Assembly (NCBI GenBank): GCA_038087875.1 | Contig: CM075990.1 | Span: forward strand, 10,046,001-10,106,000 | Source: Malacoraja senta | Lineage: Eukaryota | Length of the DNA stretch: 60,000 nucleotides | Direction: 5' to 3' | Part shown: piece by piece, positions 1 through 59,860 of the stretch | Layout of the letters: every line of letters starts with the position of its first letter | Numbering within the stretch: the stretch's first letter is position 1 | The notes under the pieces: model-generated | Database searches by the model: none | Seen by the model: only the letters and a program-made list of their open reading frames with translations | Told to the model about the DNA's origin: nothing | Position numbers and translations under genes: made by a program

Positions 1-1118
1 AAAAAAAAATCTTTATGTCTCCCAAAAAATTATTTATTACTGACAGGAATAAGATACCACAGGTTACATATGAGAAGGCTCGATTTTCAGAGAAATTATT
101 GTGCCTTTACTATCAAGCCTGCACTTTTGGAGAAATTGGAGCAGAAATATACCATTCAGCTCTTTAAGCCTTTCCACCATTCAGTGGTATAATGGATAAA
201 ACATTCATCAAGTTCCCTTAATCCTTGATTCCCTTGTTGAATAGAACTCTCAGCCTTAATATAAGGACTCCAGGGTGATGTAGAAACAATATGATTGTTG
301 GTTTACAATAGAAGACAGATAGTGGTGATGTAACTCAGCAGGTCAGGCAGCATCTCTGGAGAACGTGGATAGGTGATGTTTCGGGTCAGGACTCTTCTTC
401 AAACTTGTGTTTCAGGTTGAAATCCTTCTTCAGGCAGAGAGCTTGAGTCTGAAGAAGAGTCCCGACTCAAAACATCGCCTATCCATGTTCTCCTGAGACA
501 CTGTCTGAGCCACTGGATTACTCCTGCACTTTGTGACTTCAGGGCGACGTATAATTTATGCAAAGATTGCAATCATTCAGGAATAACCCTCAGTGCCTGA
601 AATTGCACAAATCTCAAGTGCGGGAGACTAGAGTTAGTGTTTCATGTTCTCTGATTTCTGACCTGTGCAGTTCCAGGGAATAATGAACTGTTGCACAGTA
701 ATTCCACGCCCTCTTTTTTAGATGATGTCATGTAATGAGTTTGATTGAAAGACTTGAGTGATAATTCTGTTACCATGGCTTCAGCACAAAGTGCCTCCTG
801 CCACTTACACTATCACTAAAATGTTGCGATAGCAACAGGTTTGCAATTTCTAAATGGACTAAATTTTTGGTCCAAATACAAAATAATCCAGCAGTATCAT
901 CGCTTCTACTTCCATAATTATCAAAGTCAGCACTGCATCAAACTGTAATTAAAGATTATTTTTTCTGTTTTGTCTATCTTGCTCTGTGACTCCTTTTTTT
1001 CTCTGTGGCATATGTAATACTTGTCATAAATAATATTCAAACTCGTCAGAATCATCTTCAATGTTGCCTTCTTTGTTATCATCAGGAGAAGAAGTATGGA
1101 GCAAGTCAAATATGATAT

Positions 1119-1617
1119 TGTAGCGACACCTGCTGGTGCCTGTGGGTAGTCGAACCCTGCGGTCGGGCTACCGCGGTCATGTAAGTGTGGGGAGGGGTTT
1201 TGTTTTCGCGCGTTTTCTGGGCTAGGCCCATTCATTACTTCAACCACCGTTGTGGTAGGATCGTTTTGTGTTAGCTGTCGTTTGATCTGCGTTGTTTTCA
1301 CTGCTTTGTCAATAAAGCTCGTTTGGGAAAACAACTACCGTCTCGACTCGCTAAATTGGTGACCCCGACGCGCCCAATTTGAAATTGAACGCCGGGATGC
1401 AGGACGAGTTAGCTCCCGTTGCCGTTCCCGACGCCCATCAGAGCGCCGTCAGCCTCAAGCTGCCGGTGTTTTGGCCTGAGCAGCCACAAGTGTGGTTTGC
1501 ACATGTGGAAGCGCAGTTCCACCTGCGCCGCATCGTTGCGGACGAGACGGAATATTTTCATGTGGTGGGAGCCCTGACGCAGGAGTCAGCCTCCCGTCTG
1601 CTTCTCGACTCGCTAAA
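1119..1617 (+). mobile_element. Internally deleted Gypsy-type LTR retrotransposon (5' LTR 1119-1355, PBS 1357-1370, gag start, last 15 bp of 3' LTR)
   Basis: TGTAGCGA...TCGCTAAA termini; AATAAA inside the LTR; PBS TGGTGACCCCGACG (tRNA-Trp complement); gag-like AVSLKLPVFWPEQPQVWFAHVEAQF; ATAT TSD at 1115-1118 and 1618-1621. Confidence 0.88.
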
Positions 1618-1698
1618 ATATGAATAAAAAGGCAAGCCAAGAAGTCCCGGCAAGCCACGGTGGCAAACGTCTCCCAGGAGGCCATAGAGAAGCCAGGC

Positions 1699-1824
1699 GG
1701 TGGAGCCTCGCTGGTCGGTGGAGCCTCGCTGGTCGGTGGAGCCTCGCTGGTCAGTGGAGCCTCGCTGGTCGGTGGAGCCTTGCTGGTCGGTGGAGCCTCG
1801 CTGGTCGGTGGAGCCTCGCTGGTC
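1699..1824. repeat. Minisatellite, 7 x 18 bp GGTGGAGCCTCGCTGGTC, inside a GC-rich repeat fragment
   Basis: Seven tandem units with two single-base variants; explains the repetitive ORFs at 1455-2013. Confidence 0.95.
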
Positions 1825-3550
1825 GGGCGCCGGCGGTTGAGGATGGCCACGTGGGAGCCGGTGGATGCGCCTATGGGAACAAAGGAGGACCAAGCGGGAG
1901 GGTGGATCCACCATAAGGGTGTTGGGGGTGGGGGATTGAGGGAACAAAGGAGGTACCGGCAATGGGCAAAGGCCAAGACAAGACTCTATAATTTTAGAAA
2001 CTTTGACACTTGAATGATACAGGCTGGTGCCTGAAACGTGTACTAGAACAACTTGGATATAGCTTCAGATGTTTCAACTGTAGAGAGCAAGTTCACAGAC
2101 ATTCTGTGCAGGACTAATGAAACCACAAGAAGTCTCAGGAGCAAATAAACTATATTGCAATGGAATACAGGAGAAATCACTAAAAATTGTCACTTTAAAT
2201 AGCATTTTGAGCAAAATGAATGAATAGCAATATCAAAACAATAGATCAATAATTCCATGTCCACGGGTAAATATTAATATGAACATAAGGTGCTGCATCT
2301 TCAGAGGGAAAGCTGGTAACCAAAGGTTTAGGAAGGTGTCCCTGTTTAGAAGAAGACTGAGATTGAGAATGTACTCTGGTGGGCTTGGGAATATCGGAAA
2401 AAATTCCACCTAGAGGTAAAAAGCTCCTGTATATATGAAATCTAATGCCCAACCACTGTGGGGCATTAGATTTCACATTAGAACCACAAATAAAACAAAA
2501 ATGTTGGAGATATTCAGCAGGACAAGCAGCATCTGTGGAGAGAGAAACAGAGTTAATGTTTCACACCAATGATGAAAGGTTAAGGGTTGGCCAATCTGAT
2601 GCTCTGGTGCGGCCCTGAGAGAGTCCGGCCTCGCTGGAGGTGCTGGTTTTCAAGGGGCACAATCTGCTGGCACATGGCAGTGAAAGATCCCATGGCATCT
2701 GTCCTGCATAGGAGCAGGGGAATATTCTCCAATGTTGCATTCCTATTACACAACTGAACTGATGCTGAGATAACTCAGTGGGACAGGCAGCATCTCTGGA
2801 GAGAAGGAATGGGTGACATTTCGGATGGAGATGGTCTCTCCTTCTCTCCAGAGATGCTGCCTGTCCTGCTGAGTTACTCCAGCATCTGAGGTTCCTTCCT
2901 ACACATGATTAGAACAGATTAATGATTTATCTTTTATGCCAATGTACAAAACATCTCATCGATTATAAAGTCTGTTGGGAACTCATGAAGTTCTGAAAAG
3001 TGCAAATTTTGTTTCATGTGCTATACTGAAGGCTGAGTGTCCTCTTGATCCTGATTTTGCTGAATAAGTAAGTGACATGAGCTACATATAATTAGTTGAT
3101 CAACACTCCTCCTGGTTACTGGATAACAACAGGCTTTGTATCTTTGTGCTGACTGTATGAGAATCAATCTTATACTCCTTTCATCCAGGTCATTGCTTAA
3201 TCCTCCGTAACCACAGTAACGTTGAAAAGCTGCCTCAGAAACACGAGAACAAGTAAAAACAAAGTATTGCCATCTGAAATGATGCAAGCAGATTAACTCA
3301 TAATGTTTGGGACAAAGACCCATCATTTATTTATTTGCCTCTGTACACCATAATTTTAGATTTGTAATAAAAAATGTCACGTGTAGTTAAAGTGCACATT
3401 GTCAGATTTTAATAAAGGCCATTTTTATACATTTTGGTTTCACCATGTAGAAATTACAGCAGTGTTTATACACAAGTCCCAAACATTATGGAGGGCACTG
3501 AAGGTCTAATGATTTCCATTGCCCAGTCCAGCAGGAGTGTCCCCTAGGAA

Positions 3551-5612: not shown

Positions 5613-6327
5613 AGGATTAGGGATTATGAATCCCAGGCCGGTGGATGTTTAATTGAATGAAATAATTTGGCTTAGAGTGCTGAACATACTCCTCTTGTTC
5701 CTACGTTCCTATCCATTAAGGTCAAGTATTTTGTAAATTAGATAAACAGTGGATTTTATGGTCTTACAGATAATAAAACTCTCAGCATTCACCATCAGTA
5801 CACTTTGCAACCAACAACACCGTCAGGAACTTGGACGGTTAAACATGGTAATACAACAATTGTTGTGATGGATTTGGCTCCTCCACAGGGCGTTTTGCTG
5901 ACGTCCTCCCACATAAAAATATTTGAACTGACGACTTTTTAACCAATGACTTTCACTGCATATCCAAACCACAAAATCATGAAACAGGTTCTCCAATTTT
6001 AGGTAAATGATCCCTCTCCCTCCCTTTATCCCCTCCCTACCCTGTGGCCCACCTGGAATTTGTAATCACACCTATTTCACCCTTTCCCCATCCCACTGAT
6101 CTCTTCCACATGTGTTGCTCCTTCTGGCTTTACATTTCACTGCTCTTTTACTTTATCTCACACTATTTGACTTTTCATCTCTGGCCTTTATCCAACCATC
6201 TGCCTATCAACCCAACCCCCCCCCCCTCACCTGTATCCACCTATTACCTGCCAGTCTTTGTCCTGTGGTACACAAAAATGCTGGAGAAACTCAGCGGGTG
6301 CAGCAGCATCTATGGGGCAAAGGAAAT

Positions 6328-6360
6328 AGGCAACGTTTCGGGCCGAAACCCTTCTTCAGT
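6328..6360 (-). ncRNA. Minimal hammerhead ribozyme motif (second Penelope subfamily)
   Basis: CTGAAGA-A-GGGT-TTC-GGCCC-GAAA-CGTT; insert flanked by 15-bp repeat CAGTCTTTGTCCTGT (6252-6266, 6357-6371). Confidence 0.6.
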
Positions 6361-6711
6361 CTTTGTCCTGTCCCCACCTCGATCCCAACCCGAAACATCA
6401 CCCATCCATCTTCCCCAGAGAGGCTGCCTGACCTGGTGAGTTACTCTAGCACTTTGTGTTCCTTACGGTAAACCAACATCTCGAGTTCATTGTGTCAACA
6501 GCAGCATGTTATTCCTATGCCAGCTCTCAGAACAGAACCAACAATCCCATTCCCTCACTTATTTCTTTGCAACCTACTCTTTCCTACTTGCCCGCAATGT
6601 TGCTTAATTCTCCTGTCACTTACCTACATTATAGGTAATTTACAGGGGCCATTTAAACAACCAACACATTTTTGGGAGTATCCAGGACAAACTGACACAG
6701 TCACAGGGAGA

Positions 6712-6940
6712 TAGACACAAAATGCTGGAGTAACTCAGCAGGACAGGCAGCATCTCTGGAAAAAAGAAATGGGTGATATTTCAGGTCGAGACCCTTCTTC
6801 AGACTGACGAAGGTCTGAAGAAGGGTCTTGACCCGAAACATCACCCATTCCTTCAATCCAGAGATGCTGCCTGTCCCGCTGAGTTACTTCAGCATTTTGT
6901 GTCCATCTTCGGTGCAAACCAGCATCTGCAGTTACTTCCT
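6712..6940. mobile_element. Inverted-pair Penelope pseudo-LTR derivative with hammerhead-like motif on both strands
   Basis: Palindromic arms ATGCTGGAGTAACTCAGC...; CTGAAGAAGGGTCTTGACCCGAAAC; direct repeat ACACAGTCACAGGGAGA at 6695-6711 and 6941-6957. Confidence 0.8.
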
Positions 6941-7251
6941 ACACAGTCACAGGGAGAAGGTGCAAACTCAACAAATTCAGCCCGAGATCGGAATTGAACC
7001 AAGGATATTGAAACTGTGCGGTAATAACCCTGACAATCTGTCTCCTCTGCCTCCCAGACCTATTCAATTTTGAAAAGATCGATTGTCATTGATATTAAAT
7101 GTTATTAAATTAAAGCTTAATAAACCACAAATACTGTCGAACACACTCAGGCACTGGAAAACAAATTTGATCTGTGGAGTCTACACCCCTCAGAATAATC
7201 ACTTCTAGAAATTTCAGAATATTTATCGAAGCTGAAAGTATTTTTGTTACA

Positions 7252-7257
7252 TTTATT
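7252..7257 (-). terminator. Candidate poly(A) signal of the kinase gene
   Basis: AATAAA on the minus strand about 0.95 kb after the stop; another at 7679-7684. Confidence 0.35.
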
Positions 7258-8197: not shown

Positions 8198-8293
8198 TCA
8201 AAAGCCCTCATCCCAGCCTGAGAACTCATCTGGAGGCGCTTCATTGTTACGGCAGAAGCTGTCAAAGTGGCTGTGGTCTGTTGGTCCTTGTAA
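8198..8293 (-). CDS. PRKG2-like: PRKG2-like last coding exon 18
   Basis: [31 protein letters not shown]; 96 nt ending TGA. Confidence 0.94.
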   Translation of the reverse strand, partial: LQGPTDHSHFDSFCRNNEAPPDEFSGWDEGF

Positions 8294-11200
8294 CTGATAG
8301 CAAGAAGGAAACATAGGATTAAAGAGAAATGGTGTAAGAAAGAGCTGCAGATGCTGGTTTACACCGAATGCTGGAGTAACTCATTCTTATGAACCTGAAT
8401 CAACAAATTTCCTGCTCCTCTGCAATAACCAGTCTTCTCCCAACAAGTTACAATTATAACTCATTTTTAACCAAATAAGGCTGGTTGACTTGCAAATTAC
8501 ACCTTTTGATATATTCTGAAGATAACACATCTGAATGCTGGTGAAATGAGTCTCTTAGGTCTGATGTTTGCGCTGAATAGAATCTCTTAGGTTTGATGTT
8601 CTCAAACAACTAGGGTTCAGACAAACAATCTCATTAAAGCCTAATACACTTAGACAGCTTGGTGGGATGGACATGGTGAGGCTTATTCCAGAGTCCACAC
8701 TCACATGGCTAAGTCTTAACATAAGTGATTGTCAATTTAGATCTGGAATGAGAAGAGATCTCACTCACCTTCTGAGTATGTTGAACTCTGAGATAGAGAG
8801 ATGTTTGGATATGAGGATACATAAACTACAGATTCCATATCAAAGTGGAGTTAAAGAATCAACCATGATCTTGTTGAATAATGGAGCAGGTTCAATACTT
8901 TTTAAATTTTCTAAACTACAGTCCTTTAATAGATACAAGGAACTGCAGATGCTGGTTTACAAAAAAAAGAAACAAAGTGTTAGAGTAACTCAGTGAGTCA
9001 GGCAGTATCTATGGAGAACCTGGCTAGGTTATGTTTTGGGTCAGGATGCTTCTTCAGATGAAGGAGAAATCTGTTTAGAGTCTGAAGAAAGTTCACCCGA
9101 AATGTCCCCTCTCCATGTTTTCCAGAGATGCTGCTTGACCCACTGAGTTACTCCAGCACTTTGTATATTTTTTTGCTTCCTTTAGTAGAACGGTCAATGG
9201 CTTTAAGTTACTTGGTGATAGAATCAGAATGATGTAGAGACTATGCATTTTCATTCAAAGACTGGTTGGAATCTGTATATTTACCTCTTGAAATCACAGA
9301 AGAAGCAATCCAGTAAGAAAGTATCTCAATTGAATTGCAACCTTCAAGGCTACAGTCTGAGATCAGGGATCAGCCTAAGCAACTTTTCTTTGGCTGGTGT
9401 GTGCTTGATGGGCTGAATGGTGCCCTTGTGTGCAGTAAGTCTATGATTCTACAATGATTCTCTCTGGAATAGCTTCCTATGATGTCTTGGTGTCCATGAA
9501 TTATTTTAGAAGCGTGTTAAACAATATTAACATTGTTACCTCCCTTTTAAGCAAGGATTTCATTTTCCGAGTCCGTAGACCCTCCCAGTCGAAGCCTTGA
9601 AACCACCTGAAAACAAAGTGATAGGACAAGGGATTTTTTATCATTAGAGAAGAGATGATTTATTCTCTTTGCAGTAACTATCAATTAAAGAGGGATAGCT
9701 GAAGGATCCCTGAGAGGTTTGTGCATATTAACAAGCATTGCAATGAAAGCTATAATGTTTTTATAAAGGAGAAAGTATGTAGTTTTCACATTGATCTTTC
9801 CTGCATATAATGTGCTAATGAGGCATCGCCGCTCCGGAAAGATCTCCGGGTGTTTTGTGCCGTGAAATATTTTGGACAGCACTAGTGATTGTTTTGTGTT
9901 CCCCGCTGGGAGATACGATACAACTTTGTGGGGGGGCGGGGGGTATGTGTGGGGGGGCGGGGGGTAGGGAAGGGGGAAACTTTAATAATATTTTCCCTGT
10001 ATGGAGGACCCGACCTTTCTCTGTCGGGTCTCCGTTGTCGTTGGGGCCTAGCACCGTGGAGCGGCCTCCAACCGGGACGACCTGGGGCTCCAGTCGCGGA
10101 GCCGGCGGACTTACTCACCATCGCGTAGCTGGCCGAGTTCGGAACGGGAGGAGCTGTGGTGGCGCGCTGCTGCTACCCGACCCCGGAGATTCGGAGGCTC
10201 CAGCCGCCGGCCCGGTGGACGGTGACATCGGGAGCTCGCGGGTCCCTGGTGGGAGACCGCTTTTCGGGGCTCCCGCAACGGCAACTTCTCCCGCCCGAGT
10301 TGCGGGGTTGAGGATGACCTGGAGCGGGGTCTGACATTGCCCGGCGCGGCTTTAAATGTCCGCGGGACTTGCTGGCGCTACTGGGGGCTCCAACATCAAG
10401 ACCTGGAGCATGGCCTTGCATCGCCCGGCGCGGCTTTAATGGCTGCGGGACATATCTACCATCGCCCGCCGGGGGCTTTGACTTTGACATTGGGAGGAGA
10501 ATGTGGAGTGCAGGGGAGAGACAAGACTTTGCCTTCCATCACAGTGAGGAGGAGATTCACTGTGATGGATGTTTGTGTAAATTGTGTTGTGTCTTGGTTC
10601 TTTTTACTTGTTTGTATGACTGCAGAAACTAAATTTCGTTTGAACTTAGGTTCAAATGACAACAAATAAATTGTATTGTATTGTATTGTATTGTAACTTT
10701 ATTCATCCCGGAGGAAAATTGGTCTGCCGACACTCACAACACACACGGTACACAGAAACTTGAAATTAAAAGTGAAAACGAAAAGAAAAAGACAGGTGAC
10801 TGTTGGCTGAGTACACAGGGCTATCACCGGAACAAATGAACAAACACAGACTTCTCCCCTGGGCAGAGGATTCTAAAACTAAAGTGCCCCCCCTCCCCCA
10901 CACCGGGTCCCACTTTGTTCTCCCACCCTCCCTCACAGCAGTCCCCCACACTGGGTCCCCATTGTCTTCCCCTCCCACCACAGCCGAGGCCCACGCTGCC
11001 ACCGTCGATCTGAATTACTTTCAAAAGGGCCACAGCAGAATGAAAGGGAGCTGAAGAGCAGCCATTCGCCCCCTCACCAACCTCCATGCTGGAAATCCAC
11101 AAATTACGTGGTGTGTGGCCTGACATTTGCCAGCCCTCTGCTGCTGAAGAGTCTTGTTTATTCTCACACCTTTCTATCTCACTCTTGGGGGCATTCTCAG

Positions 11201-14200
11201 CCAGGTATGATCTTACTGTAAGGGTTTTGTAGTTGGATTTGGGCTGGGATATGATTGCCATGATTTTGTCCTCCCAGGTTACAGGAGTGGTTGTGGAAGG
11301 ATGGAGACCTATTATCATTCTACCATTGTTTGAGAGGGTGAAAAGGGACAAACCAAGTAATTACACCCTCATCATACTTGGACGTTTACTTGAGGAGTTG
11401 TGACCTGCAGGGCTGTGAACCCCGTGATGATAAGTCTGATCATGATGGATAGCCTGTTATTGACTGGCATTAAATAAAATGGGCCAAGTAGCTGCACTCT
11501 TTTTCCACCATTCTACCTCAGGAAGAAGTTTCAGATAACCTTCTCTTATTGACTCCATGATAAAAGGCTTTGATCTAAATTGTCCAAGTTGGTACGTGCT
11601 CTAAATCTCTTGGATATTACTTATTTTCTCTTATTCCATCAATATGTCTTTTTCTCCATCTTCTATTCATCTACCTCTACCGTAATGTAACTATCTAATA
11701 CATTTCAGCCATTCCCTGTGGGAGCAAGTTTCACATTCGCAATGGAGGAGACTGAAGGGAGACTGAACTCCATCCGAGACCACAAGAAGTAGCAGAGAGT
11801 TGTAGGTGTAGCCCAGTCCGTCAGGCTAACCTTCCTTTCATTGACACTTCACGCTGCCTTGCCAAGGCCACCAGCATAATCAAGGACCAGCCTCACCCCG
11901 GTCACTCCCTCTTCTCCACTCTCCCATCAGGCAAGAGGTACAGAACTTTGAAAACGCATGCTTCCTGATATAGGGACGTTTAAGAAGGAACTGCAGATGC
12001 TGGAAAATCAAAGGTAGACAAAAATGCTGGAGAAACTCAGCGGGTGAGGCAGCATCTATGGAGCGAAGGAAATAGGCGATGTCGCCTATTTCTTTCGCTC
12101 CATAGATGCTGCCTCACCTGCTGAGTTTCTCCAGCATTTTTGTCTATCCTGATATAGGGACAGTTTCTTCCCAGTTGTTATCAGGCAACTGAATGATCCT
12201 CTCATCAGCTCGAGTATGGTTCTGACCTCCCATCTCCATCATTGGAGACCTTTGAACTGTCTTTAATCGGACGTTATCTTGCACTAAGTTATACCCTTTA
12301 TCCTTTATCTGTGCACTGTGGACGGCTTGATTATAATCATGAATAATCTTTTATTTGACTAGATAGTACCCAAACAAAAGCTTTTCACTGTAACTCAGTG
12401 CATGAAACTAAACAAAAACTAAACTAAACTGAAGTGTGGTAGAGGCAATACCCTCGTCACCCTTCAATGTATACGTGAGAGGTTATGATATGTAGTCTTT
12501 GTACATGTACCTTATGCTGACAGGCTTGGTTATTTATGGTGGTTAGCTTGTTGACTGGCGAGCACAGAATGGGCAAAATAGCTGAATTCTGTCATAAATT
12601 TTATGCATTTCCATAGTTGTACTTGAGGAAGAAGTTTCAGGTAACCTCCTCTTATTGGCTACAAGGTAACAGGTTGTATTCCAAATTGTCCACATTGGTA
12701 TTTGTGCTCTGCAACTCTTTTACAAGACTTCTTTTCTCCACACCCGCCAATATCCGTTTTATTCTTCCTCGTCTATTTCTCTGGTTCCCCCTTATCTATT
12801 CATTTCACCTGAATCACTTCCTCCCTGGTCAAAGATTTTCTGGAATACTCTACCAGAATATAATGACCTAGGTTATATTATTGACCACATCACAGGAGTC
12901 AATTTAATATAGCAGTGAATTTTCATGGTTGTCTTCAGCTGTTGCGGAGTGAAAGGTTTTGCTCCTATTTATTCTCTGGGCACATTGGAGGTATATAAAT
13001 TAGTCAATTAACCAAGTTTCTGTCTCCATCCTTGCTTATTAGCCACATATTGCCATTGAATGGGAAAACTGCTGGTTGTAGGAATTTGACAAGGATTGGT
13101 GAAGCTCTTATTAGATCCTGAGAGGAACCTTCTGATATGTCTCCTGCTGAAGCCAGGAATAAATTGACTGGGGTTGTGGCATGCACCCATCAAATTAATT
13201 CATTGGAACAGGAGAAGCTCACTTGGTCCTTTGAGCCTACTCCAACATTGACTGTATGGCAAATCAAATTCCTTGTATGTTTTTACATACTTGGCTAACA
13301 AATTAATTCCAATACAATACAAATTGAATTAGATATTGGCTGAGCTTCAAATTCACTGATGTTTAATGATTTACCCGACAAGCATTTTAATATAATTCAA
13401 TCAAAGCCTTAAGGGCCTGTTCCACGATGCGAGTTCACCCAAGAGCTCTCCCGAGTTTAAAAAAAAAAAAAATCTCGTGGTATTCTACGAACTCCTGCGA
13501 ACTTCCACGAGTATGTTCACGAGCTCCTACGAGCTCCTACGAGTAAAACGTTTTTAAAAATTCATCACGAGTATTTTTTTACTCGTGGACATTTTTTCAG
13601 TGTTGAAAAAACTTCACGAGTAAAAAAATACTTGTGATGAAAAAAATCGTTACTTTTTACTCGTAGGAGGAGCTCATGGAGCTCGTGAACATACTCGTGG
13701 ATGGTCATAGGAGTTCGTAGAATACCAAGAGTTTGATTTTTTTTTTAAACTCGGGATAGCTCTTGGGTAAACTTGCATCGTGGGACAGGCCCTTTAAACA
13801 ATATACTGAGGGAAGGAGGTCCAGAGTTGCACCATATAGTGTGTAAAGCCGCCAACTTGGAGGAACGGCTGCTAAACAGCAGCCGTCTGTCAAATTGACT
13901 CTTTCTTTAGTTTTAGTGTTTTTTATTTCTTTGTTTGTTTGGGGGGTTTTGACTTTTAATGTGGGGGGGTAAGGGGGAAACTATTTCTAGGTCCCTACCT
14001 GGTCGGTGAGGCAGCTTTTTCTCCAGGCTGCCTCGTCGACCCGTCCTCGTGGCCTACCAGCGGGCATGGAGCGCCGTTTCCTGACGGGGACCGCCCAGCA
14101 CCGTCAGCTTCGGTGGTGGCACAGCGCTGGAGCGCTATCGGAGAGCGTAGCGGGCGATGCCTTGCCTGGGTCGCCGCGCTGGATCGACACGCTGGAGCTC

Positions 14201-26621: not shown

Positions 26622-26683
<62 letters not shown>

Positions 26684-44600: not shown

Positions 44601-47600
44601 GTACTGCTCTATGCTCTATATTCTATGTTCTAGATCATTACATTGTCATTTATCCAATCAACAAACAACAAGATCATTAAAACACATAACAAGAATATGG
44701 AACCAGGGAACATTATCCTAAAATCGAAACCAATGTTGTTTAGGAGTACTTAAAGATAGCGGAGTCATGGGATATGGCGAGAAAGCAGGAACGGGGTACT
44801 GATTGTGGATGAGCAGCCATGATCATCCACAATCAGCTGGCTCGAAGGGCCGAATGGCCTACTCCTGCACCTATTGTCTATTGTCACTTACACACTAATG
44901 GTGAAAACCTGGAATCTTCTCAGAACCCTGGAGCTGTGAAGCCTGGAGGATGGATATTAATAGATGTTATAAGGAGCAAAGAAAGGTTCATGAAGGTGAC
45001 AAGCAGATCGGCCTGAAGGACAGGCACCCTTTACATCAAGCATCAATACAATGAGATAGACACAAACTGCTGGAGTAACTCAGCGGGACAGGCAGCATCT
45101 CTGGAAAGAAGGAATGGGTGACGTTTCGGGACGAGACCCTTCTTCAGACTGAGAGTCAGGGGAGAGGGAGACTAAAGATATGGAAGGGTAAGATGTGAAA
45201 ACGACAGATTAAAGCAGACGACGATCAAGGAAGTTTAGAATGGTTCTAATGGTTCAATATGATGAGGCCCACCTGCCAGAACATAGAGGTGGTTTCCTTG
45301 CTCTCCCTCCTGGATGACGAGATCTGTTTCTCGGTAGCTCCTCTCGTACATGCATTCCACTATCTCCCTCACATGCTGCGGTTCCAGCTTCTTCAGGAAT
45401 TCGTTGTGCATTATCGCATCTGTTATCAGTTTCTTCAAGCTGCACAATATAATACTCAGGTTATCACAAACATCCCTGGTGGTAATCATCACAAAAACAT
45501 TCCACGTACATTACCCGTCCTGTGTTTAGCAATTTACACTGAGTGGAAGGGAAATGTTTGATATTTCATGTTGGATGCACGAGAGACTGCAAATGCTGGA
45601 ATCTGGAACAAAGTTCATAAATTAAAAATTTCATAAGTTATAGGAGCAGAATTAGATCATTCGATCCATCAAGTTTACTCTGCCAATCATTCATGGCTGA
45701 TCTATCTTTCCCTCTCAACCTCATTCTCCTGCCTTCTCCCCATAACGCCCGAGGGATGGCAAAGATCAAAGTGCCTGAGGAACTCAGGCAGCATCTATGG
45801 AGCAGGCAGCATCTATGAAGTGGACAGAGACATTGGAACCTTTCTTCAGATACTTATTTTTACTGTGCTGGAATCAAATTGAAGGATTGCCACCATTGAG
45901 ATAGGGACAGCCAACAACGAGGAGCACACTTGCTCTCTGAGAAAGTCGCAAAGTGCTGGAGTAACTCAGCAGGTTAGGCAGCATCCCTGGAGAAACGGGA
46001 TAGGTCCAGACCTTTCTTAGACTGGTCAGTTTGAGGAAGGGTCACAACCCAAAACTTCAACTATCCATTTTCTTCAATGATGCTGCCTGACCTGTTGAGT
46101 TATTCCAGCACTTTGTTTCTTTTTTTTTGCAAATCAGCATCTGAAGTTCATTGTTTCTATTTGCTGTTTGAGGGTTTTTTTTCGGTCTGTATCCAATTCA
46201 AACTCGTTATGAGAATCAAGATATGACCAGAACAAGTTCATATAGTCATATACAGTAGTCCACCCCTCCACAGCCATGAGCTTTTGTTAAGTAAACAAAC
46301 TCACAATTCTTTATGCATGGGCCTGAGGATTAAATAGAAGTCATTGGATAAATTATCAAACCCCATGGGGCAGCCCGAGGTAGTGTAAGAAAAATAGAAA
46401 TACATGTTCTTGCCTTACTCTTCAATGCAGGGACCTTCATGTTCCAAAGTATTTTACACACAATCTGGTACGTTTTGTAGGACAAACTATTATTTAAGGA
46501 CAACAGACAGCTGTCATATGATAAATGACATATAGTGAGGTTTAATACTATTATGGATTAATATTGACCAGGATACTAGGAAACATGGTCATCAATGTGC
46601 TGTTTAGGGACAATGCTGATTGAGTGGAAGAAGACAGCTCCTTTGTTCTTGTGTTTTTATACCAGAAAAGTAATCGTTTTTTTTTTATCTGGTCTGCAAG
46701 AAATCTCTAATCATTCCTACTGCAGAATGGGGAGAATCTTAGAGTTACAACCTCTTAGTAATTCAGCAAACAGAATGAACAGTATGGTTCATTTTCAACC
46801 ATTAAAATGCAGCCTTTAATTATTCTGGATTCAAAACATATATTGCTATCAATTTGAAAATGAGACTTCATTGTTCAGTATTTGCTCAGTTTTGGTTTTA
46901 TAATCTTCTGTAACAATGAAAGCTAATCCTTCTGCTGATGATTCTCAAACCAGATAATTAGTCATTCTGAGATTTTTACTGTGCTGTGGCCAACCTGCAG
47001 GTAATTAACTGGGAATTTCTAGGTTGCCTTAGAACTATACACATCCATGCAAACTGGAAGTATCTGGTACTACGAGCTTACACGATCCCCAGCCAAGTTT
47101 GAATTTGTGTTAAAATTGTTGCAATTAACCATGTTGCTTGAGGAGAAAGTATGGTGCATAAATAAGTACAGAAATTATCCAAGCTAATGATGTGATTGCC
47201 TTCTAAGGTTGTCCTTGGTATGAGGAGCATGTTTCGTTGAATGGGTTGTATATCGCCCACACTTTTGTGGGAATCTAGCTGCTCATTTGCTGGGCCAGGT
47301 GAGGTTCTTTGCTCTTACCTGGAATCCTTCCGTACTCGAAGCTGATCGATGGAGAACTTCTGCACACTGTGGCAATAATAATTCCGGGAGGTTGGCTCCG
47401 CTGACACTCCCTCTTTGGCCTTGAGGCGTCGGTGGATCTCAGTAGCCACCTGGGCAAAGCGTTTTGGCCCTTGGTTTATGATACTGACTAGCTTCTTGTG
47501 TTGGTTGTACCCAATGGCATCCTGAAGCTTGACGATTTGGGAAAGTTTCCCTTTAAGTTCTTTTTCCAGCGACTGTATTTTCTTCAACTTCTGCCTCAGT

Positions 47601-47743
47601 TGCTCATCCTTCATCCTCAATTCTTCTTCTAGAGTAACAATCTTCCTTCTGAGGTTGTCAAAGTTCTCCAAGGCGGTGTCTGTCTGGGTACGGGGGGAGT
47701 TAACCTGGTCAGGCCTTGATGCTCTCACAGAACCGTTTCCCAT
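8198..47743 (-). CDS. PRKG2-like: cGMP-dependent protein kinase, PRKG2 type (possibly the prkg3/prkg2-like paralogue); 18 coding exons, 2250 nt, 749 aa
   Basis: Exons joined by hand at GT-AG junctions with consistent phases. Starts MGNGS; pseudosubstrate [50 protein letters not shown]; kinase [36 protein letters not shown]; tail [12 protein letters not shown]. Confidence 0.96.
9540..9606 (-). CDS. PRKG2-like: PRKG2-like exon 17
   Basis: [23 protein letters not shown]; 67 nt. Confidence 0.94.
9820..10695 (+). mobile_element. GC/CpG-rich non-autonomous retroelement (SINE-like) with (TTGTA)n tail
   Basis: No credible ORF; AATAAA plus microsatellite tail; shares blocks with 13845-14805. Confidence 0.7.
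13412..13793. mobile_element. Palindromic PIF/Harbinger-type MITE
   Basis: TIR AGGGCCTGT(T/C)CCAC; TTA TSD at 13409-13411 and 13794-13796; long imperfect inverted arms. Confidence 0.88.
13845..14805 (+). mobile_element. GC/CpG-rich non-autonomous retroelement with L2-like (TTA)n tail
   Basis: GTAAGGTGTCCTTG...AAATAAAATGATTATTATT; a 5'-truncated copy lies at 44279-44520 on the minus strand. Confidence 0.72.
14914..14976 (-). CDS. PRKG2-like: PRKG2-like exon 16
   Basis: [21 protein letters not shown]; 63 nt; donor GTAAGT. Confidence 0.94.
15290..15800 (-). mobile_element. CR1-type LINE fragment interrupted by a Penelope-derived insert (15506-15637)
   Basis: KSPGPDELH...[11 protein letters not shown]; insert flanked by ACTCTTCTGAACC TSD. 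Confidence 0.8.
15920..16042 (-). CDS. PRKG2-like: PRKG2-like exon 15
   Basis: [41 protein letters not shown]; 123 nt. Confidence 0.95.
16811..16974 (-). CDS. PRKG2-like: PRKG2-like exon 14 (activation segment)
   Basis: [54 protein letters not shown]; 164 nt. Confidence 0.96.
19220..19825 (+). mobile_element. CR1-type LINE 3' fragment
   Basis: [17 protein letters not shown]...[15 protein letters not shown]; (TTCTATG)-like tail. Confidence 0.85.
20181..21942 (+). mobile_element. 5'-truncated Rex1/Babar-type LINE with disabled reverse transcriptase
   Basis: [14 protein letters not shown]..., [36 protein letters not shown]; premature TAA at 20633-20635 and a frameshift near 20940; AATAAA plus (CTTGAA)n tail. 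Confidence 0.92.
21975..22470 (+). mobile_element. CR1-type LINE 3' fragment
   Basis: [12 protein letters not shown]...RMRGDLIE...[14 protein letters not shown]...FKKQLDRYM. Confidence 0.88.
22605..22746 (-). CDS. PRKG2-like: PRKG2-like exon 13 (catalytic loop)
   Basis: [48 protein letters not shown]; 142 nt. Confidence 0.95.
23739..23828 (-). CDS. PRKG2-like: PRKG2-like exon 12
   Basis: [30 protein letters not shown]; 90 nt. Confidence 0.95.
26623..26710. repeat. Compound (TA)n(CA)n microsatellite
   Basis: Direct reading. Confidence 0.9.
26864..27000 (-). CDS. PRKG2-like: PRKG2-like exon 11
   Basis: [45 protein letters not shown]; 137 nt. Confidence 0.95.
27628..27930 (-). mobile_element. 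tRNA-derived SINE (HE1/V-SINE-like)
   Basis: Reverse complement of the same SINE family. Confidence 0.85.
28095..28245 (-). CDS. PRKG2-like: PRKG2-like exon 10 (kinase Gly-rich loop)
   Basis: [26 protein letters not shown]...[12 protein letters not shown]; 151 nt. Confidence 0.9.
28526..29152 (-). mobile_element. CR1-type LINE 3' fragment with T-rich tail
   Basis: Reverse complement of the CR1 end GGCCGAATGGCCTACTCCTGCACCTA followed by a T-rich tract. Confidence 0.88.
30812..30910 (-). CDS. PRKG2-like: PRKG2-like exon 9
   Basis: [33 protein letters not shown]; 99 nt; donor GTCAGT. Confidence 0.92.
31319..31386 (-). pseudogene. Decayed duplicate of exon 8 (pseudo-exon)
   Basis: 68 nt aligning to exon 8 ([16 protein letters not shown] vs [16 protein letters not shown]). 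A 1-nt deletion gives an early TGA; AAG acceptor and GTACGT donor are retained; downstream intron flank is also homologous. Confidence 0.85.
31648..32520 (+). mobile_element. tRNA-derived SINE split by a MITE
   Basis: Head ...GTTGCTGCCTTA ends at 31682 and resumes CAGCGCCAGAG at 32263. Confidence 0.88.
31683..32259. mobile_element. Palindromic PIF/Harbinger-type MITE (577 bp)
   Basis: TIR TGCCCCT(A/G)TCCCACTTAGG; TTA TSD at 31680-31682 and 32260-32262; arms inverted over about 270 bp. Confidence 0.9.
33720..33788 (-). CDS. PRKG2-like: PRKG2-like exon 8 (CNB-B cassette)
   Basis: [23 protein letters not shown]; 69 nt; CAG / GTAAGT. Confidence 0.94.
35372..35466 (-). CDS. PRKG2-like: PRKG2-like exon 7
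   Basis: [31 protein letters not shown]; 95 nt. Confidence 0.94.
36411..36488 (-). CDS. PRKG2-like: PRKG2-like exon 6
   Basis: [26 protein letters not shown]; 78 nt; TAG / GTAGG. Confidence 0.94.
37114..37760 (-). mobile_element. Old CR1-like LINE fragment
   Basis: MEYSP...[21 protein letters not shown]...HHRCTVAAV, a LINE ORF2 C-terminal region. Confidence 0.7.
37897..37950. mobile_element. Left-end fragment of a Harbinger-type MITE
   Basis: TTA|AACCCCTGTCCCACGGTACGAGTTCATTCCAAGAG resembles the 13412 MITE end. Confidence 0.7.
38688..38751 (-). CDS. PRKG2-like: PRKG2-like exon 5
   Basis: [22 protein letters not shown]; 64 nt; donor GTGAGT. Confidence 0.94.
40100..40205 (-). CDS. PRKG2-like: PRKG2-like exon 4
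   Basis: Read directly (not in ORF track): [35 protein letters not shown]; 106 nt; TTTTTCAG / GTGAGA. Confidence 0.93.
40450..41480 (-). mobile_element. CR1-type LINE fragment
   Basis: [35 protein letters not shown]. Confidence 0.88.
42082..42195 (-). CDS. PRKG2-like: PRKG2-like exon 3 (CNB-A phosphate-binding cassette)
   Basis: [38 protein letters not shown]; 114 nt. Confidence 0.95.
42515..43256 (+). mobile_element. CR1-type LINE 3' fragment
   Basis: [44 protein letters not shown]1 3' end. Confidence 0.9.
44279..44520 (-). mobile_element. 5'-truncated copy of the 13845 element, nested in a CR1 3' end
   Basis: CGCGCCAGCGTCCACTCTCCCCTCCGACCGCC is the reverse complement of sequence near 14554-14585. 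Confidence 0.8.
45115..45152 (-). ncRNA. Minimal type-I hammerhead ribozyme motif in a Penelope pLTR fragment
   Basis: Minus strand GT-CTGAAGA-A-GGG-TCTCGT-CCC-GAAA-CGTC-AC: CUGANGA and GAAA core, stem II, loop-less palindromic stem III, GUC cleavage triplet. Confidence 0.65.
45273..45439 (-). CDS. PRKG2-like: PRKG2-like exon 2
   Basis: [32 protein letters not shown]...NHLYVLA; 167 nt; AG/GT flanks. Confidence 0.95.
47319..47743 (-). CDS. PRKG2-like: PRKG2-like coding exon 1 (myristoylation motif, coiled coil, autoinhibitory region)
   Basis: MGNGSVRAS...[19 protein letters not shown]...[11 protein letters not shown]...VRKDS; donor AG|GTAAG; 425 nt, phase 2. An upstream acceptor TTTTGGCAG near 47797 implies a non-coding first exon. 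Confidence 0.95.
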
Positions 47744-50280: not shown

Positions 50281-51654
50281 GCAGGACAGAGACCCCGAGA
50301 ATCACTGACCAGTATTGCCCTTGTGATGCAGAATTCAGAAAAACAGCTTGGATGCGGGAGAACTGGGTCGGCGGATGGGGGAAAGAACAATGAACTCAAA
50401 CGTAGATTGCACTGATTATTTTTGATCTAATCCTGTGACCGCCGCCCCGCGAAATAAACCAGTCCCTCGGGGTGGGAGGGAGAGAAAGGCGAATTCATCT
50501 GTTTTACGCCGCAAATCTATAGCGCTGTGACAAACATCAAGTTCAATATACACCCGCCCCATAGAGAGAACGGAATCTGAAAGGAAGCTAAACAACAGAA
50601 TCTTTCAAAACAGTATCTGACTATTGCACAGTTTAAAATCTCAAAGATAAGTTTTAGTAAAAGTTGTGGGTAGATGCATTTACACCAGCAGATTAAATAG
50701 GTGGATGTAAGGGAGGGAGGGAGATAGATTGGAGGGAGAAAGATGGGAGTGGTGCGTGCAGAGAGCGGTGGAGATATTGGAGCTAACATGGGGGTAGAGG
50801 GGAAGGCAGGGTCTGAGTCACCCTCCTCCCTTCCACCTTTCCCGCTGTTCCCATTATTTCTCCCCCACTCCAACCTTGCCCCATCTGCCCACTAACTCCC
50901 TCCTCACCTCACCAGGTTGCACCTAGCGCTCGCCAGCCCCTCTCAGCTCTTTAGACACAAAATGCTGGAGTAACTCAGCGGCTCAGAACGCATCTCTGGA
51001 GAAAAGGCATAGGTGACGTTTCGGGTTCTTCAGACTGACAGTCGGGGGAAAGGGAAACGAGAGATATAGACGGTGATGTGGAGGTATAAAACAAAGAGAT
51101 GCAAACCCGAAACGCCACCTATTCCTTCTCTCCAGAGATGCTGCCTGACCCGCTGAGTTACTCCAGCTTTTTGTGTCAATCTTCGGTTTAAACCAGCATC
51201 TGCAGTTCCTTCCTACACATACTCTCTTACCTCTTCAACAGGTTGTCTCCCCTCTCCGTCCCCCCACGCAGGGTCCAGACCCGAGCCACCCCTTCGCCTC
51301 CGCAGATGCTGCCTGACCTGATGAGTTAGTTCCTCCAGCGCTTTGTTTTATTTCCCTGTGAAGCCGCCGTTCTCTGCATCCGTAGTAAACACAGGCAGAT
51401 TGGGCTGATGCACGATCCCGCCGCCGTCTCCTCTTCTCTCCCTCCTGGCCTTTGCACCGTAGTGTCCTGGGCCGGGTTGGTCAGACCAAAGATCTTTGGG
51501 TCAGACTGCGGGGTTAGTGGGACGTGCCCAAAACCGACGGCCGATCCCACCTCCCAGCTCCCAGCTCCCACCACATCTGCGCTGATTCCCTTCGGCTCAG
51601 TCCCTCCCTCTGGCGGATGTAAACTGGGAGTACGAGCTCGTCAGAAAGTTCATC

Positions 51655-52115: not shown

Positions 52116-54290
52116 CAAAAATACCTGTGGCAATAAACTTGGCCAAACCTGAATTCCAGGGTCAACTTCACAGTCAGCAAGGGAAAGGCTCCTGAGAGCA
52201 GGCACCTTTAGTGCTCAGCTTTTAACTGTGTTTAACACTGGGATCAATTGGTTTTGGAAACTGTTAATATATTGGTTTATTATTGTCACATGCACTGAGA
52301 TACAGTGAAAAACTTTGTTTAGCAATGCTCTCCAACCAAATCATACCATACAGGAATATAATCAAACCATGAACGAGTACCTGAGTCTGAAGAAGGGTCT
52401 CAATTCGAAACACCACCTATCCATTTTCTCCAGAGATGTTGCCTGACCCGCTGAGTTACTCCAGCATTTTGTGTCCATCTTTGGTATAATCAGCATCTGC
52501 GGTTCATTTTGAATACATACGTGAGTGCATCAAGGAGCACGGAAACAGATATGGATGGGGAAATAGTCAAGGTTAATGTACAAAAGTGGTGGAGTCGCCT
52601 AAAGGCCACACACTCTAGCTGTGGTCCAAATTCTTTGGTTCCGACGATAACTGCAATTGTGACCTTGAAGGAAATTATACTTTTAATACTATAGCTGCTC
52701 CAGGGTTCAACAAACATGTGCCCCATTTACCTTTCACAATTGCATTTCCAGTGAATGAGACTGAAAAATGGTCCCCATCCAAAATGTCGCCCATCCATTC
52801 CCTCCACAGATGCTGCCAGACCCGCCGAGCTACTCCAGCACATTATTTTTCCTCAGCATTCCAGCATCCACACTAATCCTGCACTGATTCCATTTTTAAT
52901 TCCCCAATTTGCTGTTAGTTACTCCAGATTTTTACCACTCAGCTATGCACTGGGGACAATTTACAATGAGCAATTGACCTGCCAGCAAATAGTCTTTCCC
53001 TAAGCCAGGTTGCTGTCCGATTCTTCTCCAATCCTATTGAAGACTTTGTCTATGGAACTGATGCGCTCTAATGCTGAGAACAGTATTCTGCACTTTGTGT
53101 CTTCCCCTTTGCTTTACCTATTTTACTTGAATTTAACTTGAATGTACATATGCATGGTATATCTGATCTGTTTGGGCAGCGTGTAAAACAAAGTTATTCA
53201 CTGTACCTTGGTACATGTGACAATGAATAACCTAAACCTAATCTTTGGTCTGGAGTGGCATCTGTTAACTTCAAACACGGCCGCTCAATGCTTCAACTAC
53301 AGGAAAGCGCATCTAGGGCTTTTCAATGTTCACCCTTTGAAGATGTAGGGGGAATCACAGCAGGGGATCTGCCTTCCAAAGACAAACTGCAGTCCACATT
53401 CTTCTGACTAAAGGAAAGGTGAAATATTGAGCATGGAGCTGATATGACAGCTCAGCTCACACTAAATTTCCATGATGAGTTCCGCATGTTCCATCCACTT
53501 TGAAGTCTGGGAGCACCAGCCCTCTATTTGCATTTATCTTAATTCTTTCTGAAAAGTCTACAGCTTCCTTCCTCCTATCGAGGCAAAGATTAAGGGATTA
53601 CGACGGATGATTTGTGAGTAGAGGTTGCATCTAACATTCGCTTGTGTGAATTATTTAGATTTACTGATAAGAGACACTCTGTGAGGTGATCGTGAAGTGG
53701 ACATCAGCAGCGGCCCATCCCATTCCCACATTGGAATTATTAGCAGGGTACGACATTTCACCAAAATAATTAAAACTGTTCTGAAGCAGGCATAATATCT
53801 GTAGAAACCTCTCGTCCAAATAACGTAACGCAAACTTCTGGAAGAACTCAGTGGATCAGGCTGCATCTGGGGAGGAAATGGTCAGGCAACATTTCAGGTC
53901 CAGACCCTTCTTCAGACTGAAAGGACAATGAGTCTGAAGAAGGATTTCAACCCCAATTGTTACCTGTCCGGCCCCTCCACAGATGGACAGGTACATGGAC
54001 AGGCCAGGTTTAGAGGATGTAGGCCAAATGCAGGCAGGTGGGATAGTGTAGATGGAACATGTTGGTCGGCGTGGGTAGGTTTGGTCGAAGAGCCTCCATC
54101 CACGATGTATAACTATGACTATGCAATGCTGAATTCCTGCAGCACTTTTGCTCGAGATTGCAGCAACTGCAATGGCTTGCAGTCCAAGTAACACTAGATT
54201 TTTCTGGCGATATTTTGTATTCCACCTAAAATTATATCACAAGTCCTCAATGACGAAAGTACAGTATAAATGACAGAATTAGGTGGAATT

Positions 54291-54848
54291 CAGTCTGTAG
54301 AAGGGTCTCAACCCAAAAGTCACCTATTCCTTCTCTCCAGAGATGCTGCCTGTCCCGCTGAGTTACTCCAGCATTTAGCGTCTCTCTTCAGTTTAAACGG
54401 TTCCTTCTTACACATTTTGTCTGCTCCACTGTGAAATCTCCTCAAGGTATTTCTTCTTTGAAGAAGTTCTTCTCTCTCCGACGAGAGTTCAGCTACATCC
54501 TCTCTCGCTGCTCCCCCTCTGTGATTCCTCTACGACCTACGGCCATGTATTAACCCAGACTCACTACCACAGCCATGTTTGTTTTCTCGGTGCTTGCCTG
54601 CGTCTCCATCTTCTAGCTCGGGGATTCCAACTCCGGTTCCAGACCTCGCAGTTCGGACCCAACTCGATTACTGGTACCGAGAGTCGATCTGCTTTTTGCA
54701 ATAGTTTTCCTTCCGTGCCCTGCGTTCCACACTTGCTGCGATGGATCAGTCTGAAGAAGGATCTCAACCTGAAACGTTACCCATTCCTTCTCTCCAGAGA
54801 TGCTGCCTGTCCCACTGAGTCACTCCAGCATTTTGTGTCTATCTTCAG
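54291..54848 (+). mobile_element. Penelope-like pLTR - internal segment - pLTR direct-repeat unit
   Basis: Two same-strand pLTR copies with hammerhead-like cores at 54295 and 54751; the start of the internal segment also appears inverted near 42400-42475. Confidence 0.65.
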
Positions 54849-57760: not shown

Positions 57761-57934
57761 AAACATACATGTACCTCACTGTGCTCAGATTAGAGACTAG
57801 GGTTTTCTAATATGTAGCACAGGTTGAACACGTGTTTTAAAAAAAAGGTTTAACATTTCACCTGTCTGTTGACTGATTTGCTTGTCTGTGGGACATTAGT
57901 TAATAAACAAATTTATGGATCCTGGTGTTTACGT

Positions 57935-58270
57935 GCAGCTGATAGCGCTGCTGCCTCACAGTGAAGTGACAGAGATCTGGCTTCAATTCTGACCTTGGTT
58001 GTAGTCTGTGTGGAGTTTGAATGTTCTCCTTGTGCCAATTTGGGTTTCCTGCAAGGGTTCTAGTTTCCTCCCACATCTCAAAGATGTACACATTGGTAAG
58101 TTAATTGGCCACTAAAAATGTTCCTAGTGTGCAGGTGAGTGGCAAAATCTGGGAAAGCTGTTGAGGATGGTACAGAAAATGGGATTGATGTAGGTTTAGT
58201 GTAAATGGATGGTTAATGGTTGGCGTGGACATGATGGGCTGAAGAGCTTGTTTCTGTGCTTTACCTCTCT
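57935..58270 (+). mobile_element. Older tRNA-derived SINE copy
   Basis: Diverged central domain and CR1-like tail. Confidence 0.7.
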
Positions 58271-58369
58271 GTAGCATTAGTACTGCTACCTACAATCACA
58301 TCTTACCCCTTCATCTTAGGATCAGATGGCTTCCCTCCAGGGATTAAAGGAAGTGGGTGAGAACATTGA

Positions 58370-59860
58370 AGATACCCTGACAATAACTTTCCACAGTTCC
58401 CTCAATTCAACAAGCAATGTACTGCATGTCTCTCTTTGGAGATCTTTAGGTGGTCAGATACAGCCAGCATATGAAAGGTGAAGCATGCCTATTGAAAAAC
58501 TGCCATGCTTATGAACGTTATGGCAGTACCTTTTTGAACTGCTGCAATTTGCATGGTGAATGTGTTCTCACAGTTTTTAGGAAGTATGTTTCTGGATATT
58601 GATGAAGTGGCAGTGAAGGAGCAACAAAATTATTTCTACATCAGATAGGCCGTGATGGACGGATACTTGTTTTTTACAGACTGCTTGAAAAGATGAGGAA
58701 GTGTAGCCTTATGCTTGCTGTTCTTATCAATTTGGGTAGTAAAGGTTGTGGTTTGGAAGGTGTTCTTGACATTGTGGTGAGTTGTTACAGTATATCTTGA
58801 GTCAATAGTACGTAAATAATGGAGTAAGTGTTTGTGGTGGGGGATGGGGTGGCAAATAAATGGGCTGCTTTTTCTTGGATGGTGTTGCTGCTGAAATGTC
58901 ATTGTAGCTGCATTCAACGAGCAAACTGGAAAGCATTCTGAAAGATACTCAAAATGCTGGAGTAACTCAGTGGGACAGGCAGCATTTCTGGAGAGAAGTA
59001 ATGGGTGACGTTTCGGGACAAGACCCTTCTACAGACTGATGTCAGGTGAAGAAGGGACTCAACCCGAAACATTACTCCTGCATTTTATGTCTATCTTTGG
59101 TTTAAACCAGCATCTGCAGTTCCTTCATAAGCATTCTGAAAGGTTCTGGGAATTTGACCTCAGCCAGATTTTTCTAGCCACAGGATTTAGATGAGTGGTT
59201 GATTTAAGTTTCTGGTCAATGGTGGTTGACAATATTGTTGATGGGGACTAGCTATGCATAATACTAAGTGTCAAAGGGATGTCGTCAGAACCTCAGTTGG
59301 AGCTGGACATTGCCGGGCACATGTGGAGCAACCATTATTATTTATTACCACACTCCTGAATGCTGGTCAGGTTTTGCTGCACGTGGGTAGAGACTGTTTA
59401 TGAGAAGTAAGAAGCATAAATGAATGTTATGCAATCATCACTGAACAATCCCACTTCTGACTTTGTAAAGGACGGCGGGTGATAGAGCTGAACAATTTGG
59501 CCTGAGACAGTACCTTGAGGTGCTCCCACTATTATGTCTTGGTGCTGAGAGGATAGAATAACAACACCCACAAAACAATTGCTTTGAGGTAGGACAATAG
59601 GAAGGATTTTCCTTAAAGCCCATTAGCATTAATCTTGCCTGGTTCCTTGCTGTACAATTGGTCAATGGTTGCCTTGTTGCTAAGGTCTGGGGTTCATTAA
59701 CCTTGTCAAGACCCAAATTGAGCATCAGTGAGCAGCTTGAGTGAGCTTCCTCTTGCTGATGAGAGATAGCAGATTGATAGCATGGATTGGGTTTTATAGA
59801 ACAGACCTACCCATACAAAGTTGCACAATGTCAGGTGGATGCTGTACTGGAACAGCATAT
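58370..59860 (-). mobile_element. Old degenerate LINE related to the 37.1-37.8 kb fragment, with a nested Penelope insert
   Basis: Similar degenerate LINE sequence; nested insert 58945-59128 with 14-bp TSD. Confidence 0.55.

Follow-up and report, generated by a model that had tools for sequence, protein, structure and literature searches.

Repeat copies in and around a kinase gene

The stretch of DNA analysed here (the window) comprises 60,000 nucleotides of the Malacoraja senta genome (assembly GCA_038087875.1, contig CM075990.1, positions 10,046,001 to 10,106,000). It contains many copies of a short repeat bearing a minimal hammerhead motif of the kind known from Penelope-like elements (PLEs), together with a host gene within whose coding span many of these copies lie. 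The gene is on the minus strand, with its start at ~47743 and its stop at ~8200 (approximate coding span 8200..47743). A domain search of the open reading frames (ORFs) of the window returned kinase and cyclic nucleotide-binding domains for this gene, and the top match of one of its exons in the Protein Data Bank (PDB) was cGMP-dependent protein kinase 2 (E 5.8e-18). On these similarities, the host gene appears to be a PRKG2-like kinase.

A repeat profile made from nine window copies gave 53 matches in the window, 46 of which reached the threshold of 20 bits used for counted copies, whilst the best match in three shuffled windows scored 5.7 bits. The 46 copies are dispersed singles or inverted pairs, fall into several recognisable subfamilies and occupy 4,421 bp (7.4% of the window). 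Their families top the repeat list; the initial annotation had called this the commonest short repeat of the window. It had also described the units as non-coding, which is supported. The unit has a single ATG, whose frame runs into a stop in the common subfamily, and stem II of the hammerhead contains no ATG. Matches to read-through of the unit were found among the predicted proteins of public collections (P0001-P0047), and 46 of the 47 are this non-coding repeat predicted as protein, an annotation artefact; P0032 is unrelated.

All nine of the inverted pairs named previously are present, and two that were missed have to be added, one at 2761..2910 (cores absent) and one at 53828..53985 (from profile matches and pair analysis), giving 11 divergent pairs in the window. 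A target-site duplication (TSD) is evident in five. The pair at 6695..6957 consists of a minus-strand arm (6712-6807) and a plus-strand arm (6812-6940), with a tail on the right arm only and an exact 17-nt TSD. At 11963..12161 the arms are joined exactly at an ACGT palindrome, the tail is on the left arm and the TSD is 15 nt; the catalytic core is in neither arm (11978-12146). The pair at 58931..59142 has a 14-nt TSD and a right arm with both an internal deletion and a tail. Imperfect TSDs flank the pairs at 8922..9189 (11/12, tail on the left arm) and 17041..17273 (10/11, tail on the right arm, truncated cores). Cores are likewise truncated at 18870..19068, and both are damaged at 45930..46160, where the right arm has a tail. 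The pair at 303..540 includes an extra hammerhead fragment (408-436) and shows no evident TSD, and the left arm of the pair at 50952..51220 has lost stem II and extends into upstream element sequence. The two arms of a pair usually belong to one subfamily, with the partner ranking 1, 1, 2, 3, 4, 7, 8, 19 and 26 of 35.

The five TSDs named in the initial annotation are exact over 17, 15, 13, 15 and 14 nt (by chance, two of 400 random position pairs reach 12), and three further, imperfect ones match at 11/12, 10/11 and 8/9 positions. These duplications support insertion of the target-primed reverse transcription type, as had been proposed. However, two of the five, 15493/15638 and 6252/6357, bound single copies and not hairpins. 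The first of these copies (15493..15650, minus strand) has a tail, a 13-nt TSD that overlaps its 5′ end by 4 nt of microhomology, and a lost G12. The second (6252..6371, minus strand, 15-nt TSD) begins at C3 with an intact core, and is located past the kinase stop codon, inside an older long copy at 5986..6493 (plus strand) which has ~370 nt of pyrimidine-rich upstream sequence, a decayed hammerhead and a tail. In this nesting, a member of one subfamily sits in reverse orientation within the upstream region of an older family member, ~20 nt ahead of the older copy's hammerhead. A long copy without a tail, at 45049..45253 (minus strand), is made up of ~100 nt of pyrimidine-rich upstream sequence, hammerhead and downstream module. 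The third copy with intact core and palindrome, at 54746..54845 (plus strand), is outside the kinase coding span. Two copies, 2840-2910 and 8336-8383, lack the sequence between the paired CCAGCAT repeats on either side of the tail start.

Ends, junctions and the sharp 5′ boundary

The 3′ ends of the units, which are approximate as they were read from the ends of local alignments, are bimodal. Of the 42 matches that continue beyond model position 80, 28 stop no later than position 116 and 14 reach 128 or further, leaving 117-127 empty of ends; the long form has an extra tail of ~35 nt. Exactly one arm carries the tail in seven of the 11 inverted pairs, both arms in none, and in four it was undetected. 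None of the 46 copies starts at the hammerhead cut site, the nearest starts being 3 nt before and 7 nt after it, which argues that the template was uncut RNA. The 45049 and 50952 copies have ~60 nt of upstream sequence in common (score 55 vs 26.7 +/- 4.6, with 0/300 shuffles as high); the upstream regions of older long copies were without significant likeness in 13 of 15 pairwise tests. Contigs from public runs compared with 44990-45300 are above single-locus depth to ~45253, tailing off over ~100 nt upstream. The copies that extend upstream, the sequence shared there and the contig depth together point to the existence of a longer source element.

In our judgement, each copy is likely to be a short, dead-on-arrival cDNA insertion of the pseudo-long terminal repeat (pLTR) end module of an endonuclease-bearing (EN+) PLE, made from RNA that its hammerhead had not cut. 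Membership of the PLEs would rest on structure, namely the inverted 5′-truncated partner, the tail at one end and the TSD of variable length, all of which are found here. In such a process the PLE endonuclease would cut the target in staggered fashion, 11-17 nt apart to judge by the TSDs, and the target DNA would prime reverse transcriptase (RT) at internal sites of the RNA, ~100 or ~135 nt past the start of the hammerhead, giving the optional tail; the ends are those observed in the window and the mechanism is taken from PMC11167929. Priming from one target end would yield a single copy, and priming from both would yield two cDNAs, linked head to head through microhomology or filler and with only one arm bearing the tail. 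Most cDNAs would have stopped 2-5 nt before C3, where the copies are seen to end, with the observed minority continuing into the pyrimidine-rich upstream region. The copies would then have decayed neutrally, and the decay seen is chiefly at CpG sites, including G12 and the palindrome.

The pairs could also be thought to arise from fold-back of one cDNA. This route is disfavoured, as the junction of the 11963-12161 pair is a loopless 20-bp palindrome (12071-12090, with one CpG change) and there are further junctions that contain filler. The loopless junction fits annealing of two cDNA ends.

The 5′ boundary of the units is sharp, with 34 of the 46 copies beginning at or before model position 12. 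For the analysis of 5′ junctions, 36 matches reaching the start were taken, of which six were misanchored and dropped. Among the remaining 30, similarity to the TCAGT that precedes C3 stops after 0, 1, 2, 3, 4 and 5 nt in 5, 4, 3, 9, 0 and 9 copies, respectively. At the 45049 copy the corresponding stretch is TCAGTCT (45146..45152, minus strand), which we take to fit the initiator consensus with A+1 at 45150. Loose ends in X1 and X3 cluster at 45149, 45150 and 45152, making this a hotspot of short-copy 5′ ends. The summed depth of contigs from three public runs (coded organisms A, B and D) drops 8.6-, 7.3- and 8.4-fold from 45135 to 45153, bearing in mind that contig depth is no copy number and that part of the drop is due to subfamilies with different upstream sequence.

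In 8 of the 12 window copies whose match stops after 2 or 3 nt, a G follows (p ~0.009 against at most 0.30, a post hoc comparison), and two of the eight extra Gs fall within the TSD. The loose-end consensus at both sites has the same first base in X1 and X3. An extra G is the expected residue when RT copies a cap. Tentatively, then, the short copies may be complete run-off cDNAs of the 5′ end of a capped PLE transcript and not truncated 3′ ends, although we lean against this. Transcription by RNA polymerase II would begin at the initiator, 2-3 nt ahead of the hammerhead core; RT would set out internally, ~100 or ~135 nt further down, at one target end or at both; and the cap would be copied as the extra base before the product integrates, much like integrated strong-stop DNA. 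The PLE promoter of Drosophila virilis is internal, with the transcript start upstream of the hammerhead and inside the pLTR (PMC2377424), which makes a capped-start layout plausible. However, a second sample (35 of the 46 read-through peptides, from other contigs) counts against it, showing no G excess at position -3: the codon at -3 to -1 reads Gly in four cases (two poorly anchored), Cys in five and Arg in five, position -4 being unreadable. A start at A+1 also leaves the class ending at 5 nt unexplained, and chance matches to an initiator are common. The extra G may instead come from a sister subfamily with a templated TGAGT, for which T at -5 in four of six window cases speaks; the second loose letter in the contigs does not fit such a subfamily. 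As another cause of the boundary, a 3′ splice site at the CAG that precedes the core is disfavoured, as the loose ends share no exon (agreement 0.31-0.35). Literature searches found no paper on a cap-copied G and no description of units of this kind with so sharp a 5′ boundary immediately ahead of the hammerhead core. If the capped run-off were true, the genome would preserve a very large fossil record of where PLE transcripts start, of where RT begins and of two-ended priming, and the hammerhead would lie right at the cap, with hardly any helix I. The flood of pLTR-sized pieces in some genomes would then be accounted for by internal initiation and subsequent run-off.

State and predicted folding of the hammerhead

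The pattern CTGANGA-N(8-20)-GAAACGT has three matches in the window (6333-6359 and 45121-45147 on the minus strand, 54751-54777 on the plus strand) against 0.02 expected, and 0/100 shuffles contained it. The two motifs first reported as intact, at 45115-45152 and 6328-6360, both match this core pattern, whilst the third had been overlooked. At 6328-6360 only the core is intact; the copy begins at C3 and the preceding bases are TSD, so the closing pair of helix I is missing. The best-preserved minimal core is at 45120..45147 (minus strand; C3 = 45147, C17 = 45120), with an extra A after A9, a stem II of 3 bp plus U.U, an ACGU palindrome and a helix I of 2 bp. Thirty-seven copies were aligned over the hammerhead, 22 of them with both boxes aligned. 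The majority sequence of the 37 reads CUGAAGA, extra A, a 4-bp stem II closed by G10.1-C11.1, GAAA and C-G-U-C, with pyrimidine-rich sequence upstream. Published PLE minimal hammerheads have the consensus CUGANGA-H, a stem II with G10.1-C11.1, GAAA, a palindromic 15.2-16.2 and UH, with an extra base after A9, U-rich upstream sequence and a short helix I (PMC4209133). The majority sequence and three single copies fit that consensus as given in Fig. S3 of the same paper, and the assignment to Penelope-type minimal hammerheads is thus upheld.

Most copies lack an intact motif. Of the 22 with both boxes aligned, only eight retain CUGANGA, GAAA and UH, and in three of the 22 the core, the ACGU palindrome and stem II are all kept. 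Loss is mostly CpG decay, at G12 and at C15.2-G16.2. The 2 bp of helix I are paired in 79.5% of cells, with one-sided changes only, and are absent in the 6257 copy. The core had been expected to be more conserved than its flanks, and at 0.94 it exceeds loop II (0.69) and columns 33-45 (0.76), but not columns 46-92 (0.90, p = 0.12); compared with all columns 33-92, p = 0.037. No covariation was detected in the stems of the 22 copies (80.3% paired vs 80.6% shuffled; two double-change pairs, with 244/500 shuffles as high), in a test of low power on decayed copies of one young family. An Rfam search returned no hammerhead family among 33 matches at E up to 1, perhaps because the Rfam models need a helix III that the variant in this unit lacks.

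A downstream block conserved like the core might be expected of a dedicated non-autonomous family, transcribed from its own first base by an internal RNA polymerase II promoter and re-inserted in trans by a PLE protein, in the manner of a short interspersed nuclear element (SINE). The very uniform 5′ and 3′ ends and the several subfamilies would suit such a family, PLE promoters are internal (PMC2377424), and pLTRs suffice for mobilisation in trans (PMC3846280). However, several subfamilies include copies that extend upstream, as a longer source predicts, and the transcripts of inverted pairs would self-anneal. We consider this origin unlikely and prefer pLTR-end insertions from a longer PLE.

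For monomers of the three best copies the predicted probability of stem II is 0.00, 0.00 and 0.01, with its 5′ strand predicted to pair elsewhere. Dimers held by stems II and III only reach -11.5 and -13.3 kcal/mol, whilst the best co-folds score -23.1 and -25.0 kcal/mol, helix I and tertiary contacts being excluded from these values. A transcript across an inverted pair is predicted to fold into a single long hairpin (-172.6 kcal/mol) that would bury the motif. Such a transcript carries one sense motif only, and therefore the hairpins cannot be the dimers through which cleavage had been suggested to occur. Lunse and colleagues are said to have reported in 2017 that small PLE hammerheads cleave as dimers. 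Elsewhere PLE hammerheads are described as having low activity, dimers included (PMC4209133), and eight of nine Xenopus dimers were without cleavage in vitro (bioRxiv 2026.07.22.740005). The hammerhead of an Anolis PLE cleaves only with protein and is dispensable for insertion, the uncut RNA being the template in vitro (PMC11167929).

The first reading of this DNA also placed potential cleavage sites in kinase introns. Twelve copies inside the kinase coding span are sense and twelve antisense, so strand bias is absent. The core at 45120-45147 is the sole one at once sense, intronic and intact; the copy that holds it (45049..45253) lies in the intron starting at 45272, with the cut site 152 nt into the intron, and the predicted stem II probability of its monomer is ~0. 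The motif at 6328-6360 is ~1.85 kb past the stop codon and outside the coding introns. Cleavage sites in kinase introns are not supported.

These observations bear on the proposal of a retrozyme-like family, in which tandem transcripts would self-cleave as dimers, circularise and be reverse-transcribed, and inserted copies would cut host pre-mRNA. The minimal hammerhead with its ACGU palindrome would suit this, and public contigs contain a few head-to-tail joints going back 91-99 nt, albeit at a depth of hundreds vs tens of millions for the unit. Moreover, non-LTR retrozymes derive from pLTRs and are present in the sole chondrichthyan sampled (bioRxiv 2026.07.22.740005). However, retrozymes form head-to-tail arrays cut at the ribozyme (PMC7229834; bioRxiv 2026.07.22.740005), and the window contains no head-to-tail tandem array of the unit, only singles and inverted pairs none of which begins at the cut site. 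The rarity of the full motif, the lack of covariation, the negligible predicted stem II, the even gene strand and the inert Xenopus dimers all count against it as well. We regard a retrozyme-like cycle as very improbable. On the favoured reading the hammerhead would be a passenger motif, maintained in the source element and mostly broken, misfolded or buried in inserted copies.

Origin of the family and comparison with known systems

Several results weigh against derivation from a PLE. No Penelope RT or GIY-YIG ORF was found among the 278 window ORFs (of at least 62 aa), where the only domains were those of the kinase, a RT of the long interspersed nuclear element (LINE) type and a gag-like domain; as the copies are 5′-truncated, the absence of a PLE ORF from 60 kb is expected. 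Searches for a PLE partner by DNA pattern gave no match in viral contigs, metagenomes or phages and one in prokaryote genomes, which lies over 23-36 nt inside a bacterial gene and is taken as chance. By protein, one match and a further 47 were found, all spurious read-throughs without RT or nuclease domain. In six of the 11 inverted pairs no TSD was evident. Finally, plain random 5′ truncation leaves the sharp 5′ boundary (34/46 starts; 7- to 9-fold depth drop) unexplained. A frame end reading F-S-N-F-R-stop occurs just once in the six frames, at 5989-6006 (plus strand), on the 5′ edge of the pyrimidine-rich region of the longest copy. It may be where the ORF of the source element stops, given a possible resemblance to the PLE ORF ends of these fishes, but is given little weight.

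With a PLE ORF not found, the core no more conserved than the downstream block and no Rfam hammerhead, the units might be ascribed to a non-Penelope element, such as a fold-back DNA element or a LINE-dependent SINE, with a coincidental hammerhead match. However, TSDs varying from 11 to 17 nt, unequal arms and single copies misfit a terminal-inverted-repeat element, and neither a tRNA head nor a LINE tail was seen in the unit. All features of the PLE hammerhead consensus are present, and conservation of the core exceeds that of loop II and of columns 33-45. A non-Penelope origin is accordingly given very little credence beside the PLE reading.

Overall, the observation set out in the initial annotation is partly confirmed and its interpretation partly supported. 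As a repeat family the units are ordinary: truncated PLE copies with minimal hammerheads have been recorded at thousands of loci across many animals. New here is the family itself, a PLE pLTR-derived repeat that is mostly decayed. It also cautions against assuming that such motifs, when found in host introns, act as ribozymes. Much about PLE transposition is still poorly understood, including the formation of inverted ends and tails and the role of the hammerhead, and an abundant, sharp-ended family offers a natural data set.

Other elements were seen in the window. A broken LINE-type reverse transcriptase (RVT_1) lies at 20288-21740 (plus strand) in a kinase intron, antisense to the gene. At 31713-32241, inverted arms of 248 nt, 95% complementary and spaced by 33 nt, resemble a miniature inverted-repeat transposable element (MITE) and are unrelated to the hammerhead family; a second MITE-like structure at 13411-13794 has 117-nt arms, 90% complementary, and an internal 10-nt repeat. 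A second dispersed family of ~300 nt (D18-D20), found at 3573, 5346, 32250, 57951 and 59893, is what we take to be a tRNA-headed SINE. A DUF7041 domain at 1355-1842 (plus strand), followed by seven copies of an 18-bp tandem repeat, is probably a retrotransposon gag-like remnant.

Insertion units of EN+ PLEs (Penelope/Poseidon, Neptune) consist of a pLTR, an adjacent inverted 5′-truncated copy, a 30-40 nt tail and a TSD (PMC8557442 Fig. 2; PMC3846280), the hairpin arrangement being among their known features. The units described here are like these in their 5′-side inverted partner, tail at one end, TSD, junction microhomology and hammerhead in the terminal module. They are unlike them in that no ORF is seen, the units are only 100-135 nt long and a sharp 5′ boundary precedes the hammerhead core. 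The motif matches metazoan PLE minimal hammerheads (Cervera and de la Pena 2014, PMC4209133) in CUGANGA-H, G10.1-C11.1, GAAA-C-G-U-H with its palindrome and the U-rich upstream sequence, and rows for Drosophila virilis, Culex and Oikopleura in Fig. S3 of that paper also show a helix I of only 2 bp. There, PLE hammerheads are mostly single motifs in truncated copies, with some close opposite-strand pairs (Schistosoma); the supplement file searched contains no cartilaginous fish.

In the Anolis Poseidon element PAc, two internal RT start sites bound the tail and both target strands are cut and extended (Frangieh et al. 2024, PMC11167929). The units resemble PAc in RT start sites ~110 nt or more past the hammerhead and in uncut RNA as the template, but the ORF of PAc begins from stem II, where the unit here lacks an ATG. 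With animal non-LTR retrozymes (PMC7229834; bioRxiv 2026.07.22.740005) they share a relation to pLTRs, a non-coding nature and a type I hammerhead. However, those retrozymes form head-to-tail arrays and circular RNAs, whereas the copies in this window are dispersed singles and inverted pairs in which the uncut junction is contained.

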